From a bacterium (GTDB lineage Bacteria; Joyebacterota; Joyebacteria; Joyebacterales; Joyebacteraceae): 64,000 nucleotides of DNA. Location: contig JALGZK010000017.1 of the NCBI GenBank assembly GCA_025774935.1, positions 3,308-67,307 of the forward strand, read 5' to 3'. Position numbers and translations under genes: made by a program. Below the pieces are notes generated by a model. It searched no databases. It was given only the letters and a program-made list of their open reading frames with translations, and was not told where the DNA came from. Below, one piece after another: positions 1-61,113 of the stretch (positions within the stretch are counted from its first letter, which is position 1; each line of letters starts with the position of its first letter).

Positions 1-3000
1 GTCTCGCCCTCGCCGGTCGACTGGAGGAAGTCCCCGCTCACGAAGGGCTCCCCGTCGATGGTGACCTGCACCGTCGGCGGGCTCATCTCGACGTGCGTCA
101 TCGGGTCGCCGAGAAGAATGTACGTCCGGTCCTCGGTCGACGACCCCTGTTCCGTTATGACCTTGACGGTCCCCTTCGTGACCACGCCGCCCAGTGACCA
201 CCGGGGCCACGGGTTGTCCTCCGGCGAGCCCTCGGGCGTCGGGTCGAGGAAGAAGGCCTCGAAGACCTTCTCGTTGTAGGTCGCGTTCGGGCCGAGGTAC
301 GCGATGCTTGAGCAGGCGAAGGTGCCGATCGCGCCCTGCCCGCCCGGCCTGAAGAGCATCTGCTCCACGATGCAGTCGACGCTCGTTCCCTCGTGCGAGT
401 CGTAGAACCGCGACAGCTCGCAGGACCATCCGAGGAAGATGAACGGCCTGCCTACGTTGTTGAACCTTGAGATGTCGTTCGTTCCGGTCGTGGCCAGGAT
501 GAGCTGCTCGTGCGTCATCTGGGTCCTGTTCCCGTGGCCTTCGAAGTTCACGATGTTGGTCCCGTTCGAGATCTGGTCGAACATGACGGGCGTGGCGTTG
601 TCGCGCACGTAGTTCGCCGTTTCGAACGCGTAGATGAAGTCGCCGGACGTCGTTTCGCCGTGGAACGGGTCGGTGAACCTGTGAAGAAGGAAGTGCGTCG
701 TGTCGATGCCCGCCGGGTTCGCGTCGACCATCTCGCCCAGTTCGAGGCTCACGGTGGCGAAGCGATCCTCCGAGGTGTAGCGAACGTAGTTCGATCCGAT
801 CGACCGGTACGACCACGAGTCGTCAGCGAGGAAGTAGACGTCGTTCCTCCAGTAGTCGTCGGGCTCATAGTCCTCGTACTCGATGATCTTCTGAACGAGG
901 TTCTCCAGCTGGCTCTGGGGTCCGACCGGGAGCCGGCCGATCATCATCTGCGGGAGGAAGAGCGGTCCGTCGCCGAACGAGATGAACCACTGGTCGCTCG
1001 CCCTCAGCTTGGGTTCGCTCGCGGGCGATCTGATGAAGAGATACGTGGGCAGGTAGTCCGGAGTGCTCGAGTCGAGGGTCTGCTTGGTGTCCTCGTTCGC
1101 ATCACCGACGAGGAGGCACCACTGCGGCTGCCGGTCCCACTCGTCCATGGCGTACTCGAAGAGGTTGCGGATCGCCTCGTGCGAGGGCAGGCCTCCGTTG
1201 AACTCGTCGTAGACCTCCTGGAGCTTCGCGTGCGTCACCACGTGCCCCTGGGACTCACGGAACGCTACGAGAGGCTCCACCCCGTTGTGGTGGCCGTCGT
1301 ACGAGACGACGATGAGGTCGGCCTCCCTCGAGAAGAGGTTGGCGGGCTCGCGCCTCTCGATGTAGATCACCTCGAGCGCGCCGCCCGTCTCGACCGCCTC
1401 GTATCGGGCGAACCCCGAGACGTCCGTCTGGAAGACCAGCCGGTATCCGCCGCCTTGGGGCTCGACGTTCACGGCGTCAAGGGCGAACTCGAGCGGACTC
1501 CACGGATCGGTCACGTCGAAGAGACGTATAGCGTCGTCGTCGAATCCCCCGACTTCGAACTGGCTCAGGCCGGTCTCTCCCCCGCTCGTGCAGGCGAGGC
1601 GACCGTCGACCGTCCGGTAGCTGCGCAGGTAGTCGAACTCGAACCAGTCCAGGTTCGCGCCCGACCAGCCACCCGGGCCGTCCGAGCCCTCCGCGACGAG
1701 CGAGTTCGCGCCGTCGGTGAAGTAGGACGCCGGGATCGGGGACGTCGGGTTCGCGTAGACGTCCTCGTCCATCGAGTAGGAGATGCCGCTGAACTGGAAG
1801 TCGTCGACGTAGTTCGTGGTTCCCGTCCCGTCCTTGATCGAGAAGTCGACGCGGTGGGAGCCGGTCGTGATGCCCTGGTAGCGAGCCCTCAGATAGACCC
1901 CTCCGGACGGGTCGATGTCGTGGATCGAGAACGGCAGCTGGTACTCGTCGTCTTCGTCCCCGTAGAACGTCCAGTGATAGTAGTCGACCTCGTCGTTCGG
2001 GGGGGTCGAGTCGTAGTAGACGTCCTCCTCGAACCTGAGGGTGTCCCGGAAGCTCGCAGGCGGCACGAGGCCGGGCTCGTCGAGCCAGCCCGGCGTCGTC
2101 TCCATCCTGGTCGCGACCCCTTCGCCCCACCCGAACCAGTACACGTTCTCCGTCGTGTAGCGGTCTTCGTAGCCTTCGACCATGACGCCGTCGGCGAAGC
2201 TCAGCGCGTAGAAGTAGAGGTAGTCCGACCCGTCGAAGAGGTCGTTCTCGTTCTCGTCGACCACGACGATCGCCGTCGGTGTCTCGACGAACGGATCGAG
2301 CTCGGCAGGCTCGTACGTCCTTCGGTAGACGCCGATCTCGTCGACCGAGCGCGTGCCGTCGAGGCCCTCGGCCGCGAGGTCCGCGAAGCTCACGCGATAG
2401 AGCCCCGTCTCGCCGATCCAGAGCCGGTAGGCTTCCTCGTCGTCCCGCAGTTCGATCCTCATGTGGGCGCGGCGGGGCTCCGGACGGGCGCGCCACCGCT
2501 TCGCCTGGTCGTAGTTCAGGATCGTGCCGGAGTAGATGCCCTCCCACGCGGGTTCGTGCCGGACCTGGGGGATCATCTCACGCTCGAGCCCGCGAGGGCG
2601 GCCCCGCCAGCGGTCCGCCGCGCGGATCCTCACCCTAACGACGATCCTCGAGTGGAGCGCGAGCTGCCCGGTGCGCGGCGAGTAGTGGAACGGGCTCAGG
2701 AGGACCTGGACGACGCGCTGGTGCCGGAACGTCGACTGCGCACCGAGCTCTGCGGCGGCCGCCGGGTACGAGCCCCCGCGCGCGTAGAACTCCTCGTTCG
2801 GGAGGTACTCCTCGGTCGCGATCGAGAACTCCTCGTCGGAGACGATGCCCTCGACCGGGGCGGGCTCGATGCGATACGGGCCGAGGGCCTCGGTCTCGAG
2901 GGAGACGACCTCGAGGGAGAGCTCCGCCCCGAACGGGACGCCCAGAAGAACGCCCTTCCTCGGGAGCTTCGGGAGGCCGGGCTCCGTCGTCGAGCCGTAC

Positions 3001-3188
3001 AGCGGGACGCGGACCCGGTAATAGGACTCGCCACCGTGCACGACCTCCTCGAGCGAGTAGTCGTCGGTGGCGAGTTCTACGAGTATCTCGTCGTCTGACG
3101 TTTCGAGGACCCGCGGGCCGTTCGCCGCGAGCGCCGGCGCACAGAGCAGGAGCGCGATGACCGCCGCGGACAGACACTTCTGGAGCAT
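1..3188 (-). CDS. Secreted caspase-fold cysteine peptidase, C25 gingipain/PorU-like (partial; C-terminus beyond window start). Over 1060 aa visible
   Basis: Hand translation of minus strand: signal peptide MLQKCLSAAVIALLLCAPALAANG starting at ATG 3186-3188 with GGAGGGGAGAGGG RBS. Near window positions ~600 and ~430 the motifs IVNFEGHGNRTQM (His-Gly) and RPFIFLGWSCELSRF (Ser-Cys) match the catalytic His/Cys dyad arrangement of peptidase C25. Not in ORF track because the stop lies off-window. Confidence 0.55.
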   Translation of the reverse strand, partial: MLQKCLSAAVIALLLCAPALAANGPRVLETSDDEILVELATDDYSLEEVVHGGESYYRVRVPLYGSTTEPGLPKLPRKGVLLGVPFGAELSLEVVSLETEALGPYRIEPAPVEGIVSDEEFSIATEEYLPNEEFYARGGSYPAAAAELGAQSTFRHQRVVQVLLSPFHYSPRTGQLALHSRIVVRVRIRAADRWRGRPRGLEREMIPQVRHEPAWEGIYSGTILNYDQAKRWRARPEPRRAHMRIELRDDEEAYRLWIGETGLYRVSFADLAAEGLDGTRSVDEIGVYRRTYEPAELDPFVETPTAIVVVDENENDLFDGSDYLYFYALSFADGVMVEGYEDRYTTENVYWFGWGEGVATRMETTPGWLDEPGLVPPASFRDTLRFEEDVYYDSTPPNDEVDYYHWTFYGDEDDEYQLPFSIHDIDPSGGVYLRARYQGITTGSHRVDFSIKDGTGTTNYVDDFQFSGISYSMDEDVYANPTSPIPASYFTDGANSLVAEGSDGPGGWSGANLDWFEFDYLRSYRTVDGRLACTSGGETGLSQFEVGGFDDDAIRLFDVTDPWSPLEFALDAVNVEPQGGGYRLVFQTDVSGFARYEAVETGGALEVIYIERREPANLFSREADLIVVSYDGHHNGVEPLVAFRESQGHVVTHAKLQEVYDEFNGGLPSHEAIRNLFEYAMDEWDRQPQWCLLVGDANEDTKQTLDSSTPDYLPTYLFIRSPASEPKLRASDQWFISFGDGPLFLPQMMIGRLPVGPQSQLENLVQKIIEYEDYEPDDYWRNDVYFLADDSWSYRSIGSNYVRYTSEDRFATVSLELGEMVDANPAGIDTTHFLLHRFTDPFHGETTSGDFIYAFETANYVRDNATPVMFDQISNGTNIVNFEGHGNRTQMTHEQLILATTGTNDISRFNNVGRPFIFLGWSCELSRFYDSHEGTSVDCIVEQMLFRPGGQGAIGTFACSSIAYLGPNATYNEKVFEAFFLDPTPEGSPEDNPWPRWSLGGVVTKGTVKVITEQGSSTEDRTYILLGDPMTHVEMSPPTVQVTIDGEPFVSGDFLQSTGEGE

Positions 3189-3302: not shown

Positions 3303-4673
3303 CTAGTGCGCCACCCTCGGCGCGTACGTGGCGTAGTCGAACTCCGGGCTGTTCTCCTTGTCGTGACAGGCACTGCAGGTCGCAGCCGTCACGACGCCGT
3401 AGGATCCGTCGCGCGCGTGGTCGGTGCCGATCCCGTGACACGCCTCACACTGGACGCTGCGGAGGATCGTCGGCACGCCGACTGATCCATCCTGCGGGAG
3501 GTCGAGGTGGCACGTCACGTGGCAGCGGAGACACTCCGGATTCGTCGATTGGTGCGCTTCCTCCAAGGTCGCGAACGCGTTCGCGTGCGCGGTCTCCATC
3601 CACTGATCGTACTGCGGCAGGTGGCACCGCTTGCAGGAGTCGTTGACACCGACGCAGACCTCCACGTACGCCTGCCTCGCCTGCGCCTTCGCCTCCCTCT
3701 CCCTCGCCCTCGCTGCTGCCCGCTCCTTGCTCAGCTCCTCGACCGCGACCTTGTGCTCCTTGAGCGCGAGCGCCATGACCGCGTCCGACGGGACCGTGTC
3801 GATGAGGGCGACGGCCTTGCCCGTGTAGCCTTCGTAGACGCCGTCGGCGTCGAAGCTCAAGCGGAAGTCCGACATGTACTGACCCTTGTATCCGGGCTGC
3901 ACGAAGACGGCCCCGCTCACCTCGTAGGGATCCGCCGAGAACGCGCTGTGGTTCCCCACGACGACGAAGTCGATCCCGCCGATCTGCCCGGCGATGTCCT
4001 TCGCCCTGGCGAGGCCCGTGTGGCTCAGGAGGATCACGAGATCCGCCTTCGTCCTGAGCTCGGGCACGAGCTCATTGAGAACAGCGTAGGGATCCGCAAT
4101 GGTGACCCCGGACGATTCGACCTCGCGGTGGGTCCTGAGATCGATTGAGGGATCCAGGACCCCCACGACCGCGAGCGTCACCCCCGCCCGTTCCACGATC
4201 ACATAGGGTTCGACGACGAGTTCCCCGGTTGATTCATCGAGGACGTTCGCCGAGACGATGGGCACGCCGCTCTCGTCGAATCGAGCGTGGAAGTAGTCGA
4301 GACCCATGTATAGGTCGTAGGCCCCGATTGTCGTCGCCGCGTATCCGATCTCCGCCATGCCCCTCAGGTTCATCGCGTCGACCATCTCGCGGGCGAACTC
4401 GCGTCGGGTCAGGGAGCTTCCGCCGTCGACGATGAGTTGGAGAGGTACGTTCTGTTCAAGCTGGTTGATGTAGCCGGCCCTCCGGACCAGCCCGCCTTTC
4501 TGGCCCCCGTGTCAGCCACAGGGCTCGAGTTCTCCCCGCGTGTCGGTGGTCACGAGGAGCGCAATCTCGAAGGGACCTTCCGGCCGTTCCACGCGCTCGG
4601 TCGTAGCGCAGCCGGCCGCGACGAGGACCGCCAGCACCACGATGAGTCCCCAACGGTTGACCAAGGCCTTCAC
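3303..4673 (-). CDS. Lipoprotein: degenerate 5'-nucleotidase/metallophosphoesterase-like domain fused to C-terminal tetraheme c-type cytochrome. Reading frame interrupted by in-frame TGA at 4512-4514 (possible pseudogene, sequencing error, readthrough or Sec)
   Basis: ORF 3303..4385 carries 4 CxxCH motifs (CKRCH, CLRCH, CEACH, CSACH) after a UshA-like region (VILLSHTG, VVVGNHS). The same frame continues upstream through TGA to a GTG/TTG start (4673/4664) after GGAGG, encoding lipoprotein signal VKALVNRWGLIVVLAVLVAAGC. UshA-like homology (LLVTTDTRGELEP ... GGLVRRAGYINQLEQNVPLQLIVDGG ... MVDAMNLRGM) spans the stop. Metal-ligand motifs are degenerate (DxH to DTR, GNHE to GAYD). Confidence 0.55.
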
Positions 4674-4889: not shown

Positions 4890-4924
4890 ACAAAGAAAAA
4901 CGGGTGGCGCGCAATGCGCCACCC
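4890..4924 (-). terminator. Intrinsic terminator of paralog A
   Basis: GGGTGGCGC-gcaat-GCGCCACCC hairpin followed on the minus strand by GTTTTTCTTTG. Confidence 0.6.
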
Positions 4925-4945
4925 GCTCTCTGGAATGTACTCGTG

Positions 4946-5551
4946 CTACCGGTACAGGCTCTTGATCGAGCCCCACGTGGCATCCTCGACCGGCACCGGC
5001 GGGACGCAGTCGCCGTCCAGCGGGGGCATGCAGAGGCCGAAGTTACCGGCGTGGCCGTGCGAGTCGATCGACGCGACGCACCACTCGTCGAGCAGGTTCT
5101 GGCAGTCCGCGCCGACGGGGCCGTCAACGTCGTGCGCCAGAATCGTGATCGTGCCGGGCGTACCGAGGTACAGGTACGTGACCACCGCAGCGACCAGGAC
5201 GCCGTTGGCATCCGGGAACTGGCAGTTGGCGCCAGCCGTGATCGCCCAGCCGGGGGCGACTTCGACATCGCCGAAGTCCAGGCCACCGAGCAGGTTCGTC
5301 TGGGCGAGCTTGAAGCCGCCGAACGTACGGTCGAACTTGAAGGCAGCGCCGAGCATGCCGCCACCAACGCCGAACTGGTCGAAGCAGACGTAGACGTCGA
5401 CGGTCGCGTTCGGGGCCGGACAGACTTCGTTCACGACGTCGTTGCCGGTGTCCATGTCGGCGTCGAGGAAGATCGCCAGGTTCGGGTTATCATCGGCGAA
5501 AGCCGTCGCCGCGAAAGCCAGAACCATCACAACAATCATGAGCCTCTTCAC
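4946..5551 (-). CDS. Small secreted protein, paralog family 1 (A), C-terminal tail PVEDATWGSIKSLYR
   Basis: ORF 4946..5602. Probable GTG start 5549-5551 9 nt after GGAGG. Signal peptide MIVVMVLAFAATAFA-DD. Core LAQTNLLGGLDFGDVE shared with B, C, E. Confidence 0.8.
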   Translation of the reverse strand: MKRLMIVVMVLAFAATAFADDNPNLAIFLDADMDTGNDVVNEVCPAPNATVDVYVCFDQFGVGGGMLGAAFKFDRTFGGFKLAQTNLLGGLDFGDVEVAPGWAITAGANCQFPDANGVLVAAVVTYLYLGTPGTITILAHDVDGPVGADCQNLLDEWCVASIDSHGHAGNFGLCMPPLDGDCVPPVPVEDATWGSIKSLYR

Positions 5552-5865
5552 GATCTCAAACCTCCGTGCTGAAGGAACAGCCGAAACCACACCAATCGTC
5601 AAGCTGCAAGGTCGTCGATCACCTCCTCCTGCTCATCTACATGACAGAGTGTCTCTCGGATGCCAGACGCTCCGAGCGTCAACGCTCCTCACACTTTCGC
5701 ACCTGACCTTAGTATAGCACAAGACCTTGGGTTTTGGAAGAGTTTTTTGTGGCGCTTGGGCGCTCTGCACAGAAGAGACACGAGCGACTCACTGTGAGGC
5801 GTCAGACGGGACGTGGCACGGGTTCCAGGGAGCGTCCGCGATATTGGATGAATACAGGTAACTAG

Positions 5866-5903
5866 AACTGAAGAGGGGGCGGAGCCCGTCAGGCTCCTCC
5901 CCC
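5866..5903 (-). terminator. Intrinsic terminator of paralog B
   Basis: GGGGGCGGAGCC-cgtca-GGCTCCTCCCCC hairpin (1 mismatch). Confidence 0.45.
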
Positions 5904-5928
5904 TCCGCAACGCTCTCGTGATTCAGAC

Positions 5929-6534
5929 CTACCTGTAGAGGGCCTTGATCGTCCCCCAACTCCGGTCCTCGACCGGCACCGCGGGCACGCAGTCGCCGTC
6001 CGGAGGAGGCATGCAGACGCCGAAGTTGCCGGCGAATCCGTGCGAGTCGAGCGACGCGATGCACCAGTCATCCAGGAGGTTGTCGCAGTCCGCGCCGACG
6101 TGACCGTCGACGTCGTGCGCCAGGATCTGGACGATGCCGGGCGTGCCGAGATACAGGTACTGAACCGAGGCAGCCACCACGACGCCGTTGGCATCCGGGA
6201 ACTGGCAGTTGGCGCCGGCCGTGATCGCCCAACCGGGGGCGACTTCGACGTCGCCGAAGTCCAGACCGCCGAGGAGGTTCGTCTGGGCGAGCTTGAAGCC
6301 GGCGAACGTACGGTCGAACTTGAAGGCGGCGCCGAGCATCCCGCCGCCGCCACCGAACTGGTCGAAGCAGACGTAGACCATGATCGTCTCGTTCGGGTTC
6401 GGACAGACCTCGTTCACGACGTCGTTGCCCGTGTCCATGTCGGCATCGAGGAAAATCGCCAACTGCGGGTTCTGATCGGCGAGCGCCGTCACCGCCAGCA
6501 GCAATACGAGCAGAACTGTGACCAGCTGTCTCAC
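5929..6534 (-). CDS. Small secreted protein, paralog family 1 (B), tail PVEDRSWGTIKALYR
   Basis: ORF 5929..6612. Probable GTG start 6532-6534 9 nt after GGGAGGAG. Signal LVTVLLVLLLAVTALA-DQ. About 85% identical to A. Confidence 0.8.
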   Translation of the reverse strand: MRQLVTVLLVLLLAVTALADQNPQLAIFLDADMDTGNDVVNEVCPNPNETIMVYVCFDQFGGGGGMLGAAFKFDRTFAGFKLAQTNLLGGLDFGDVEVAPGWAITAGANCQFPDANGVVVAASVQYLYLGTPGIVQILAHDVDGHVGADCDNLLDDWCIASLDSHGFAGNFGVCMPPPDGDCVPAVPVEDRSWGTIKALYR

Positions 6535-6654
6535 GCTCACACTCCTCCCTTCTCGCTCCCTCGCCTGGTTACCTCGCCACCCATCGGGGACCCGGCATCC
6601 CGCAATCACCACCGCCGTTGCCGCGGTGCCTCACGTTCGCCGGGCCCTGAGATG

Positions 6655-6688
6655 GCGAAGGGGGCGGCGCCGACTGCGCTCCGCCCCC
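6655..6688 (-). terminator. Intrinsic terminator of paralog C
   Basis: GGGGGCGG ... CCGCCCCC 8-bp stem. Confidence 0.45.
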
Positions 6689-6727
6689 ATTGCCACAACG
6701 TATTCACTACCCGGTATTAGCAGTAGC

Positions 6728-7345
6728 TTACCGGTACAGAGACTTGATGGCACCCCAGGTCGCGTCCTCGACCGGGCTGATCGGCTCGCAGTCGCCCGAG
6801 GGCGGAGCCATGCAGACGCCGAAGTGGCCGTCAAACTGGTGCGAGACCGTCGACGGGACGCACCACGTGTCGAGGAGGTTGTCGCAGTCGGAGCCGACAG
6901 GACCGTCGACCGGGTGCGCGAGGATCGTGATGGTGCCGGGCACGCCGAGGTACAGGTACGACACCGACGCGGCAATCACGATGCCGGTGGCGTCCGGGAA
7001 CACGCAGTTCGCGCCGGCCGTGATGGCCCAGCCACCAGCCTCGACATCACCAAAGTCGAGTCCGCCGAGCAGGTTCGTCTGGGCGAGCTTGAACCCACCG
7101 AACGTGCGCTCGAACATGAAGGCAGCGCCGAGCATGCCGCCGCCAACTCCGTCGCCAGCCGGTCCGAACCTGTCAAAGCAGACGTAGACGTCAAACGCCG
7201 CGTTCGGAGGCGGGCAGATCTGCGTCACGGGCGCCGTACCCGTATCGTTGTCGGAGTCGAGGAAGATCGCGAGGTACGGGTTCTGGTCTGCGAGCGCCGG
7301 GAGGGCGAACGCGAGCACCAGGAGAACAATCAGCAACTTCTTCAT
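6728..7345 (-). CDS. Small secreted protein, paralog family 1 (C), tail SPVEDATWGAIKSLYR
   Basis: ORF 6728..7366. ATG 7343-7345 after GGAGGG. Signal MKKLLIVLLVLAFALPALA-DQ. Confidence 0.8.
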   Translation of the reverse strand: MKKLLIVLLVLAFALPALADQNPYLAIFLDSDNDTGTAPVTQICPPPNAAFDVYVCFDRFGPAGDGVGGGMLGAAFMFERTFGGFKLAQTNLLGGLDFGDVEAGGWAITAGANCVFPDATGIVIAASVSYLYLGVPGTITILAHPVDGPVGSDCDNLLDTWCVPSTVSHQFDGHFGVCMAPPSGDCEPISPVEDATWGAIKSLYR

Positions 7346-7543
7346 CGTAGTCCCTCCGTTTCGCACGGAACGGTCATCTTCTCAAGCAGCTCCACAAGTG
7401 GTAAGTAGATGCTCTGGCATCACCTCCCCCAGTGGACGTCGGACAAATTCGTTCCATCAAAAGCCTGAGTCGGGAAATAGAACGAAAGCGCCGTACACCC
7501 TCAACGCCACACACCCACGTCCGTGCAACCGGCCAGAACCTCG

Positions 7544-8116
7544 CTACGGAGCTGCGTGTCCGTAGTGAGCCGAGAACAGGATGAAGTCCTGCAGGCCGAT
7601 CGCACCGCCGCTCCAGTTGTAGTCGCTGCGGCCGACAACGAGGCCATAATCACCCGAGAACTCGATGAAGTCCTGGAGGTTCAGCCAGTTGTTGACATCC
7701 ACGAACAGATCGAACGTCTTGCAGTCCAGGTCGTCACTGTCGTTCAGAACGACCGTATAGATCTGCGCGCCGATCGTGACACCGGGCGTGGCAATGCTCT
7801 CGTCACCAACGACCGTGAAGCGGATCTCGCCATTAGCGTCGGTCTCCGCGTCCACGTTCGCAAACGTGACGTCGCCACCGGTCACCGTGAAGAAGAAGCT
7901 GTTGTACGGAATCCCCTCGATCGGGGTCGTGTCAGCCCTCTTCGCGGTAACAGTGATGTACTCGAAGGCCGGGCCATCGCCAGCAGGGCACGTCGTCATA
8001 CCGAGATCAGGACCGAGATCGCAAGTCGAGAGATCGGGGTCCGGGATTCCGGCGTTAGCGACGCCCGCCGCGAGGACCAGCAGTCCTGCGAGCACACCGG
8101 CAAGCGTTCTTGACAT
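7544..8116 (-). CDS. Secreted protein with two C-terminal tandem repeats (dockerin-like, N/D-x-W...LQDFI-F-S-x-x-YG); lacks the shared tail
   Basis: ORF with GGAGG RBS, signal MSRTLAGVLAGLLVLAAGVANA. Repeats DVNNWLNLQDFIEFSGDYG and SDYNWSGGAIGLQDFILFSAHYG. Confidence 0.65.
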   Translation of the reverse strand: MSRTLAGVLAGLLVLAAGVANAGIPDPDLSTCDLGPDLGMTTCPAGDGPAFEYITVTAKRADTTPIEGIPYNSFFFTVTGGDVTFANVDAETDANGEIRFTVVGDESIATPGVTIGAQIYTVVLNDSDDLDCKTFDLFVDVNNWLNLQDFIEFSGDYGLVVGRSDYNWSGGAIGLQDFILFSAHYGHAAP

Positions 8117-8431
8117 TTTCCTACCTCCTTACAGACAACTCAGACGCTCTGGGATCGCGCTGATGCCCGCGGGTCCACGAGAGACCCGTCAGGAACATAC
8201 TCTGCTGCGTCGGACCTCCTTTCCATGTTAGATGTCCGGTCGCTTTGTGGTGTCCTCTGTCTCAAGGCCACCTTCACGGAGCATTATAGCACAGCTTCCC
8301 TGTGTTTTGCAAGGGGAATCCGACACCACAAAACCCGCAACCGCCTGACAGCCGGGGCTTTGAGGCCTCATGTGAGTGGTTCCCCCCTGGTGGTCTGCAA
8401 GAACTGAGCCCGTGGGTCTATTCGTTGCTCA

Positions 8432-8480
8432 AAGTGGCAAAAACGGGCTCGCCCGCTGGTATCGGTGGGGGGGCGAGCCC
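8432..8480 (-). terminator. Intrinsic terminator downstream of paralog E
   Basis: GGGCTCGCCC-N16-GGGCGAGCCC perfect 10-bp stem, followed on minus strand by GTTTTTGCC. Confidence 0.45.
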
Positions 8481-8597
8481 GAATTCGACACCTCACAAAG
8501 GTATTATACGATACCCCGCCCGGCCGCGCAAGAGAAATCCGATGACGATTTCGTGCGACAGGTGACGCACATGGCGTCCGCGGAACTACGTCCGGTC

Positions 8598-9155
8598 CTA
8601 CCTATACAGACCCTTGATCCCGCTCCAGGTTGAAGCCTCGACCGGGCTCGAGGGCGCGTCGGTGCCCACGCCGAAGTTACTGAAGACGGTGGCCGTGTCG
8701 AGCAGGTTGTCGCAGTCGGAGATCACGAGCCCGTCGACGGGATGCTCCACGATCGTGATGGTGCCGGGCGTCCCCAGGTACAGGTACTGCACAGTCGCTA
8801 GCATCAGGTATCCGTTGGCATCCGGGAACTGGCACTCGGCCCCGGCCGTGATCGCCCAGCCGCCGGCCTCAACGTCGCCGAAGTCCAGGCCCGGAAGGAG
8901 ATTCGTCTGGGCCAGCTTGAACCCGCCGAACGTACGCTCGAACAGGAACGCTGCGCCGAGCGCTCCCCCGCCCGGTCCGAAGTTCTTCGCGACGACGTAC
9001 ACGTCGATCGTTCCGTTCGGAGCCGGATCGAGCCTGTTGTTCTCAGGCGGCGGCGGGTTGTTCGAGTCGCACCCGATCATGATGTTCGGGTTCTCGTCCG
9101 CCATCGCCGCGGTCGCGATGAACGCGACCAGCACTGCAGCCACCATGAACCTCAT
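8598..9155 (-). CDS. Small secreted protein, paralog family 1 (E, more divergent), tail SPVEASTWSGIKGLYR
   Basis: ATG at 9155 after GGAGGGAGGG. Signal MRFMVAAVLVAFIATAAMA-DE. Conserved core ERTFGGFKLAQTNLLPGLDFGDVEAGGWAITAGAECQFPDANG. Confidence 0.8.
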   Translation of the reverse strand: MRFMVAAVLVAFIATAAMADENPNIMIGCDSNNPPPPENNRLDPAPNGTIDVYVVAKNFGPGGGALGAAFLFERTFGGFKLAQTNLLPGLDFGDVEAGGWAITAGAECQFPDANGYLMLATVQYLYLGTPGTITIVEHPVDGLVISDCDNLLDTATVFSNFGVGTDAPSSPVEASTWSGIKGLYR

Positions 9156-59122: not shown

Positions 59123-59647
59123 ATGAAGAAGCTGCTAATTGCTATTGCGATCCTCGCCATCGCGGCCCCGGCCATGGCTCGCGAGATCGAGGGCGCGTTC
59201 GTGGATCTGGTCGACCCGGCGGCGAATGAGCTCATCCCCGGTGCGACCATGACCCTGAAGTTCATCGTCCAGAACGATTCGAGTGACGCCGAATGGCTCA
59301 CCGACGTTCACATCGCGTTCCCCGACGGGTTCGTCCTCCACGAGAGCACGATGGCCTACGACATGATCGTGGCCGGCCGGCCGAGCTGGGACCAGTATGT
59401 CCCGCCGGTTGACCACACGGCCATCTGGGAGGACAACAACGGTGGCTGGGGCGAGGTCTACAGCACCGAGTTCACGCACGTCTACATCGACGTGACGATC
59501 CCCGACCAGCTCTACGGCTGCATCTACTGGTCGCTGTGGGGAGACGAGTACGGCGACGAGCCCCACTGGGTCTGCGGCTGCATCGACGTCGGCTTCAGCC
59601 CGGTCGAGGATGCGACGTGGGGTGCGATCAAGGCGATGTACAGGTAG
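59123..59647 (+). CDS. Small secreted protein, paralog family 2 (F), tail SPVEDATWGAIKAMYR
   Basis: GGAGG RBS, signal MKKLLIAIAILAIAAPAMA-RE. Mature domain unrelated to family 1 but same C-terminal 15 residues. Confidence 0.8.
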   Translation: MKKLLIAIAILAIAAPAMAREIEGAFVDLVDPAANELIPGATMTLKFIVQNDSSDAEWLTDVHIAFPDGFVLHESTMAYDMIVAGRPSWDQYVPPVDHTAIWEDNNGGWGEVYSTEFTHVYIDVTIPDQLYGCIYWSLWGDEYGDEPHWVCGCIDVGFSPVEDATWGAIKAMYR

Positions 59648-60164: not shown

Positions 60165-60686
60165 ATGAAGGTCCTGATGGTAGCGATCACGATTCTGGCG
60201 CTCACGTTCGCCGCCGGCGCGCGTGAGATCGACGGCGCGTACGTGTCCCTGACGTCGCCCGCGCCGCTCGACATCGTCCCGGCGACGGTGATGACGTTCA
60301 TCTTCTGGGTCCAGAACGACTCAGGCGACGCGGAGTGGCTCAGCAACATCCATATCACGTTCCCCGACGGCTTCAATCTCGTGGAGGGCTCGATGGGATT
60401 CGCCGAGATCGCCACAGGCCGACCCAGCTTCGACATGACCGTCAGCGGACAGACGGCTCAGTGGGACGACAACGACGGCGGCTACGGCGAGATCTACAGC
60501 ACCGAGGGCACGGAGGTGTGGGTCGACGCGTTCGTCCCGGGCTGCTACGAGTGCGGCGAGCTCTACTGGGAACTCTGGGGTGACGTCTGGGGCGCGGAGC
60601 CTCACTACGTCGACGGGGTCATCGACCTCTGCCCCTCGCCCGTCGAGGAGTCGACTTGGGGATCCATCAAGGCGCTCTACAGGTAG
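60165..60686 (+). CDS. Small secreted protein, paralog family 2 (G), tail SPVEESTWGSIKALYR
   Basis: ATG 60165 after GAAGGAGG. Signal MKVLMVAITILALTFAAGA-RE. About 50% identical to F. Confidence 0.8.
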   Translation: MKVLMVAITILALTFAAGAREIDGAYVSLTSPAPLDIVPATVMTFIFWVQNDSGDAEWLSNIHITFPDGFNLVEGSMGFAEIATGRPSFDMTVSGQTAQWDDNDGGYGEIYSTEGTEVWVDAFVPGCYECGELYWELWGDVWGAEPHYVDGVIDLCPSPVEESTWGSIKALYR

Positions 60687-60754: not shown

Positions 60755-61113
60755 TGGTGGAGGCGGCGGGAGTCGAACCCGCGTCCGAAAGCGATTCCAC
60801 ACGGACCTCTACATGCTTAGCCCGATCTTTGGATCTCGCCCCCCGGGTCTCCAATGGGCGGGATACCCGGCGAGCCAGCCACCGTATAGAGTTCGCCTCC
60901 TCACCCAGCGGCAAAGCTCGGAGACTATCCCGTGTAAGCGACGCCCCATCCCGGCCCCACGGGCAAAACCGGGTGGGACGCGTCCGCTCTAGTTAGCAGA
61001 CGTATGCCGGCTGGTAGTCGGCAGTTGAAAAGTCCCCGTTTGTTTAACGAGCCAACGGGACCTCGGCATGCCATCCGTGTTTCTCTCACCCCCGTCGAAA
61101 CCGGATCGCCCCC
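60755..61113 (-). ncRNA. ssrA: tmRNA (ssrA)
   Basis: Minus strand starts GGGGGCGAUCCGGUUUCGACGGGGG and ends GGGUUCGACUCCCGCCGCCUCCACCA (tRNA-Ala-like acceptor/T-arm + CCA). Candidate tag region GCCGACUACCAGCCGGCAUACGUCUGCUAA. Confidence 0.85.

Follow-up and report, generated by a model that had tools for sequence, protein, structure and literature searches.

A portable C-terminal tail on unrelated secreted proteins of uncultured bacterial phyla, a candidate envelope targeting signal

The LPXTG, PEP-CTERM, GlyGly-CTERM and MYXO-CTERM signals, the first three associated with sortase, exosortase and rhombosortase, respectively, combine a motif with a transmembrane helix of about 20 residues and a basic cluster. 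[quoted passage not shown] LPXTG, PEP-CTERM and the T9SS CTD each led to dedicated envelope machinery, and it is mainly through such signals that surface proteomes can be predicted from sequence. Here we analyze a stretch of 64,000 nt (hereafter the window; contig JALGZK010000017.1, positions 3,308-67,307, G+C 66.8%) in which six proteins with signal peptides, four of them encoded in a tandem array, end in a common tail of about 16 residues. We show that dozens of unrelated families of mostly small secreted proteins carry this tail as a portable tag, which is almost always strictly C-terminal. The tail probably serves as a signal for targeting to, or anchoring at, the cell envelope.

A portable tail at the C-terminus

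A six-frame scan finds W(G/S)xIKx(L/M)YR followed by a stop codon at the end of exactly six open-reading frames (ORFs) of the window: those of the paralogs A, B, C and E, on the reverse strand, and those of F1 and F2, which lie on the forward strand 50 kb from the array and show no sequence relation to A/B/C/E, yet carry an identical kind of tail. The tails occupy positions 4946-4996 in A (VPVEDATWGSIKSLYR plus stop), 5929-5979 in B (VPVEDRSWGTIKALYR plus stop), 6728-6778 in C (SPVEDATWGAIKSLYR plus stop), 8598-8648 in E (SPVEASTWSGIKGLYR plus stop), 59597-59647 in F1 and 60636-60686 in F2, and all six proteins start with an AxA-type signal peptide. The consensus, (T/S/V)PVEx(S/T)(T/S)WGxIK(A/S/G)LYR-COOH, extends for about 10 residues after PVE, ending in W-G-x-I-K-x-L-Y-R and the stop codon, and contains no hydrophobic span. 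Expressed as a degenerate DNA pattern, tail and stop codon match the window six times, against 0.00 expected matches (100 shuffles). The copies differ from each other by synonymous codons, indicating that the constraint acts on the peptide.

Pfam and NCBIfam searches at E<=1, T9SS sorting-domain and sorting-signal models included, returned no match to the tail or to the passenger domains of the six tailed proteins (A-F). A search of the PDB with the tail profile gave nothing significant, and the tail was not found in a literature search covering the motif, Eisenbacteria secretion and T9SS, CTERM signals and Latescibacteria cohesins. To all appearances, neither Pfam (2025 copy), NCBIfam release 20 and the PDB nor the searchable literature describes the tail.

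The tail DNA pattern was used to scan one genome per species from 185,579 species, yielding at least 117 loci, all of them in metagenome-assembled genomes (MAGs); locus figures from here on cover the 117 loci listed, each as an 8-kb locus. By record title, the loci comprise ~43 Eisenbacteria, 8 Latescibacter-, 6 Krumholzibacteri-, 3 Gemmatimonadota and 3 'Fibrobacteraceae' entries together with ~50 unclassified ones, the hosts being MAGs of Eisenbacteria, Latescibacterota, Krumholzibacteriia, Gemmatimonadota and relatives. At positions left free by the pattern, residue -10 of the resulting tail set is T or S in 93% and residue -4 is A, S or G in 80%, with E, V and P at -13, -14 and -15, respectively, in about 50% each. 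At least 156 ORFs in these loci end in the tail. Once the tail is removed, 146 of the proteins fall into 68 BLAST clusters, 45 of which are singletons, and the domains of their representatives include LTD, Cleaved_Adhesin, FG-GAP, NHL, CBM, beta-helix, plastocyanin and choice-of-anchor J and W; homologues of PEP-CTERM, rhombosortase-dependent and myxosortase-dependent proteins are also found as passengers. Searches with the Pfam and NCBIfam hidden Markov models (HMMs), those for Por_Secre_tail, FlgD_ig and the T9SS sorting domains included, revealed no family common to the 68 tail representatives, so neither Pfam nor NCBIfam models the tail. Carriers are small (median 238 aa), and most are not lipoproteins, a lipobox being present in 8 of 117.

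A 17-position HMM free of positional constraint was built from the six window tails and searched against 1.84 billion (1.84e9) representative proteins, giving 188 matches at E<=0.001. In the best 148 of these 188, the motif lies at most two residues from the C-terminus in 144, and the terminal residue is Arg in 119 and Lys in 7. Nine of the same 148 (P0079-P0081, P0102-P0104, P0122, P0163 and P0167), most of them with a lipobox, contain two to four copies of the motif. Some copies form a C-terminal tandem (P0102), others separate duplicated domains (P0104, P0122, P0167) and others come right after the signal peptide (P0079, P0163). Several multi-copy proteins have a conserved YRWEDxG segment ahead of the motif, so that the multi-copy proteins may be one family, possibly NTF2/SnoaL-like by analogy to one weak DUF4440 match among the tail proteins. 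Tail genes may also occur side by side: one locus holds six tandem paralogs (L026:1646-6328), and in another (L120:8888-10573) three consecutive tailed genes encode members of three families, namely a cohesin-like protein (197 aa), a protein rich in Cys (152 aa) and P0054, indicating that tail genes of different families cluster together.

These results bear on a preliminary description of the same DNA, made from its sequence. Its account of four tandem Sec-secreted paralogs with a common C-terminal tail proves accurate by the six-frame scan, the signal peptides and the hairpins described below, and its view of the tail as a portable module, not just family conservation, is borne out by the 68 clusters and their unrelated domains. 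The tail also lacks a transmembrane helix and is far shorter than a T9SS CTD, as stated there, and the comparison with known sorting-domain models and the tail-profile search of public sequences that it suggested gave the negative result and the 188 matches reported above.

The gene array and its surroundings

The array occupies positions 4946-9155 on the reverse strand and comprises paralogs A (4946-5539; 197 aa, with Sec signal, cohesin-fold domain and tail), B (5929-6504; 191 aa), C (6728-7345; 205 aa) and E (8598-9155; 185 aa), with the gene for protein D (7544-8116) between C and E. Pairwise identity among A/B/C/E is 57-75%, with A and B at 83%. A, B, C and E are predicted to adopt the beta-sandwich fold of cohesins, which the AlphaFold2 (AF2) model of C shows at a predicted local distance difference test score (pLDDT) of 93. 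Their family is small, with 61 unnamed clusters of homologues among 5.8 billion, in which the tail is conserved, and it is confined to one Eisenbacteria clade; two-domain fusions (P0022, P0025, P0058) keep the tail at the extreme C-terminus. Protein D has a signal peptide, a weak Big_1 Ig-like domain and two dockerin-like repeats visible in its sequence, with no Dockerin_1 match of its own, and it carries neither tail nor CTD. Its orthologues adjoin cohesin-tail genes in five loci (L052, L063, L093, L074 and L122).

An intrinsic terminator (4896-4930, reverse strand; 15-bp stem followed by a T run) lies 3' of A, and strong GC-rich hairpins are found 3' of A, B, C, F1 and F2. Extended -10-like promoter sequences on the reverse strand precede A (5700-5712, TGTGCTATACT) and D (8283-8312, TGTGCTATAAT), which is consistent with separate transcription of individual array genes. 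Between syntenic genomes (array flanks; L014, L052, L063 and L122), the cohesin-tail paralogs are 28-47% identical, against 55-68% for the flanking housekeeping genes; the array is fast-evolving, a trait typical of proteins exposed at the surface. Window proteins are also encoded on two Joint Genome Institute (JGI) metagenome contigs from sample 3300041074, one (L001) spanning the array and its flanking genes and the other (L119) the F1/F2 locus.

A gene for a secreted C25-family cysteine peptidase (3-3188, reverse strand) lies 1.8 kb away from the array and shares its strand; it runs off the window and is represented by the N-terminal 1062 of 1249 aa. The gene between array and peptidase (3303-4673, reverse strand) contains an in-frame TGA at 4512-4514, in the context GELEPCG-TGA-HGGQKGG (motif EPCG-U), at which gene callers split it into ORFs of 49-53 and 349-360 aa, in L001 and L122 likewise. 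Its product has a lipobox N-terminus and matches NF041198 (UshA_like_PCGU, 251 bits) and Cytochrome_C554, so that by sequence it looks like one candidate selenoprotein, a UshA-like lipoprotein in which a PCGU part is fused to a cytochrome c554 domain.

F1 (59123-59647, forward strand), a YcnI/cohesin-like beta-sandwich protein, and its paralog F2 (60165-60686, forward strand; 55% identity) are encoded among metabolic genes, the only kind in the remainder of the window, which contains no T9SS parts. Rfam matches in the window are limited to one tRNA and one tmRNA. The tmRNA gene (60755-61113, reverse strand) lies directly downstream of F2, and the tag peptide predicted for it by ARAGORN, ADYQPAYVC, is unusual in missing the usual Ala-Ala end and may be a misprediction.

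Explanations for the tail

The tail is predicted to form a short amphipathic helix on a flexible linker. In both AF2 models it appears as a helix after a linker, detached from the confident beta-sandwich core and with a pLDDT of ~60 (in C, helix 192-204, about 60). The helical hydrophobic moment of the tail is 0.5, whereas control 10-mers taken from these proteins reach 0.44 at their 95th percentile. One face carries W, I, L and Y, with K and R flanking, and the conserved G at -8 and the small A, S or G at -4 create a small-xxx-small face. The explanation that we favor, tentatively, is that the tail may be a short portable envelope targeting or anchoring tag whose helix docks non-covalently on a specific envelope component. 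Following Sec export, the helix would serve as the tag, its W/I/L/Y face, flanking K/R and small-xxx-small (G...A/S/G) face docking on a receptor protein or a membrane surface, and this docking would keep the passenger at the cell envelope. In the array, the tail would play the part of SLH or LPXTG, tethering cohesins that display dockerin-bearing partners such as D, and adjacency to the C25 peptidase would reflect block synteny and not a tail-specific partnership. A broader proposal, in which TWGxIKxLYR is the address label of an unrecognized envelope sorting pathway of Eisenbacteria, Latescibacterota, Krumholzibacteriia, Gemmatimonadota and relatives that runs parallel to T9SS, has its own receptor or enzyme and serves dozens of small surface proteins per genome, minimal cohesin-dockerin display included, is conceivable, and we regard it as doubtful.

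A lead for a receptor comes from the neighborhoods of tail genes. Among the 2936 ORFs of the loci listed, no conserved neighboring enzyme recurs except fusions of a sulfatase to tetratricopeptide repeats (TPRs), seen in seven loci (L012, L032, L053, L069, L077, L096 and L101; e.g. L032:6793-7998 and L096:2038-4170). Five of six scanned sulfatase proteins are fused to TPRs, that of L069 being a sulfatase only and that of L032 being cut by the locus edge, and the genes adjoin tail genes of at least five tail families, in many cases immediately downstream of them. As C-terminal peptides can be bound by TPR domains, the sulfatase-TPR proteins are a tentative lead for the tail receptor.

Several points weigh against docking by an anchoring helix and against its application to the array. 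The low AF2 confidence of the helix implies that a different conformation is possible in the bound state. The frequencies of W, G, I, K, L, Y and R in the genome-scan set are fixed by the search pattern, and W-G-x-I-K-x-L-Y-R is conserved across phyla more strongly than in-plane membrane anchors usually are. A recognized, possibly cleaved, signal would account for the near-absolute C-terminal position and the terminal Arg at least as well as a passive anchor. Regarding the array, a Pfam scan at E<=1 gave no Cohesin match for A-E, and D orthologues score below the Dockerin_1 cutoff of 22.9 bits (17 bits, E 0.007, in L063; 16 bits, E 0.013, in L074). Protein D has no export signal beyond Sec, so that cohesin and dockerin would meet either in the periplasm or at the surface. 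All carriers of the tail are, moreover, uncultured.

The strongest competitor, which we consider unlikely but worth serious attention, is a sorting signal removed or transferred by dedicated machinery, be it a new sortase-like enzyme or an outer-membrane route, possibly as a minimal T9SS-shuttle signal. Besides the strict C-terminal position and terminal Arg, its presence on choice-of-anchor families speaks for this proposal, as does its relation to T9SS CTDs. When the 2936 ORFs were clustered, the largest cluster was joined only by a shared FlgD_ig/T9SS-type CTD of ~85 aa, and 47 ORFs in 35 of the loci have such a C-terminal CTD, which, like the tail, ends in a basic residue (a hydrophobic strand and terminal K or R). 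A CTD HMM built from the loci matched 0 of 139 tail proteins, and no protein has both elements; five tail proteins nonetheless show passenger homology to CTD proteins, as in adjacent paralogs of L083, making tail and CTD mutually exclusive on homologous passengers. CTD proteins are also longer (median 576 aa vs 238 aa, p = 1.5e-8). Even the 'short' T9SS CTDs of Prevotella intermedia hold motifs B, D and E (PMC11969387), none of which is present in the tail. The lack of these motifs and the mutual exclusion identify the tail as an alternative C-terminal module in CTD-using genomes, and not as a CTD. Against a removed or transferred signal stand the missing conserved enzyme among the neighboring ORFs and the tandem, internal and post-signal-peptide copies within a putative single family, an arrangement seen more typically in repeats that bind or anchor than in cleaved signals.

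Other roles for the tail were considered and rejected. It is not a linker element upstream of CTDs, as CTD proteins hold no internal copies; nor is it an outer-membrane beta-signal, which ends in an aromatic residue, given its terminal Arg (119/148) and passengers that are soluble beta-sandwiches. Lpp-like attachment to peptidoglycan through a terminal Lys is contradicted by the predominance of Arg over Lys (119 vs 7 of the best 148 of 188 matches).

The preliminary description had proposed the adjacent C25 peptidase as the processing enzyme of the tail, which would then be a recognition or cleavage signal for a PorU-like protease acting as a sortase. We find this claim unsupported and the model improbable. 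The peptidase matches Propeptide_C25 (8.5e-17) and Peptidase_C25 (4.6e-60) in Pfam and retains the catalytic His/Cys dyad (motifs EGHGN and GWSCE); it is related to PorU, itself a C-terminal signal peptidase/transpeptidase, and scores 193 bits against the NCBIfam PorU equivalog NF033707, under a cutoff of 420 that was probably trained on Bacteroidota, so that it may be a distant PorU orthologue. The same-strand arrangement is kept in L014, L049 and L122, where peptidase orthologues (~50% identity) adjoin cohesin-tail arrays. In these loci, however, the whole block is syntenic (IleRS-DksA-LspA-RluD/RuvX-YceG-array-cytochrome-C25-FAD/Fe-S genes (GlcD)), and with housekeeping genes included the adjacency of C25 gene and array carries little functional information. 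A C25 homologue is present in only 3-4 of the 117 loci; it is absent from the F1/F2 neighborhood and from the locus of P0054, a more distant cohesin-tail homologue whose neighbors are two other tail genes and a CTD-bearing M28 peptidase. The complete peptidase (1249 aa; L001:10719-14468) itself ends in a FlgD_ig/T9SS-type CTD of ~85 aa; no T9SS core genes (porV, sprA/sov, porKLMN) are found in the window or L001. The peptidase is a PorU/gingipain-like T9SS-type protein whose expected substrates are CTD proteins, which are plentiful in the same genomes and whose motifs B, D and E the tail lacks, and nothing ties the tail specifically to it.

Similarly improbable is a helix that plays no part in targeting and only mediates protein-protein association, as an oligomerization motif or a mini-dockerin for cohesin-like receptors that builds complexes or filaments. 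The small-xxx-small face, the co-occurrence with cohesin-fold proteins and the dockerin-like C-terminal placement on diverse enzymes and binding modules would suit such a role, but the cohesin-like family is small and limited to one clade while the tail spans several phyla, and no known dockerin is nearly as small as a helix of 10 residues. A non-functional origin, with the motif reflecting similarity by chance, a DNA or RNA element at the ends of genes or the ordinary conservation of a family, for which only the shortness of the motif speaks, can be dismissed in view of 0 occurrences in 100 shuffles against 6 observed, the synonymous codon differences, the 68 unrelated clusters and the restriction of Rfam matches to the tRNA and tmRNA.

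Comparison with described signals

Proteins of no fewer than 68 unrelated sequence clusters bear the tail, which current annotation models miss; they come from several uncultured phyla that are common in soil, groundwater and sediments. A simple tail HMM would classify a large share of the 'hypothetical' secreted proteins of these phyla, and phylogenetic profiling with it could expose the partner machinery. The combination of cohesin plus tail with a dockerin-like protein in one array suggests a cellulosome-like display logic in Gram-negative candidate phyla.

Among described systems, the T9SS CTD (type A, TIGR04183/Por_Secre_tail, FlgD_ig-like and processed by PorU) resembles the tail in being a portable C-terminal element with a basic end on Sec-exported proteins of the Fibrobacteres-Chlorobi-Bacteroidetes (FCB) group, and the two are used in the same genomes on homologous passengers. 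The CTD is, however, an Ig-like beta-sandwich of 70-100 aa, a figure taken from the preliminary description, whereas the tail has ~16 aa, is predicted to be helical and has no HMM match. The tripartite LPXTG, PEP-CTERM, GlyGly-CTERM and MYXO-CTERM signals are likewise short C-terminal tags on many unrelated surface proteins, and their families overlap with the passengers of the tail in choice-of-anchor domains, an M36-like peptidase and a ScyF-like NHL protein, but the tail has neither their transmembrane helix nor an NCBIfam match.

The array, in turn, recalls cellulosomal anchoring scaffoldins in joining one predicted cohesin-fold domain to a C-terminal module, here proposed to anchor, next to a dockerin-like gene. 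It differs from them in that its hosts are Gram-negative candidate phyla, its anchoring module would be the new tail, its cohesin and dockerin are recognizable only by fold or sub-threshold sequence matches, and it encodes no carbohydrate-active enzymes. The short terminal amphipathic helices of Escherichia coli PBP5 and PBP6 and the MinD membrane targeting sequence share with the tail their aromatic/aliphatic and Lys/Arg faces; anchors of this type are poorly conserved in sequence and are not known to be shared by unrelated families, whereas the tail is nearly invariant across phyla. In concept, then, the tail belongs to a known kind, the C-terminal sorting or anchoring signal, and in architecture, with 16 residues, no transmembrane helix and no folded domain, it is unlike every described member.

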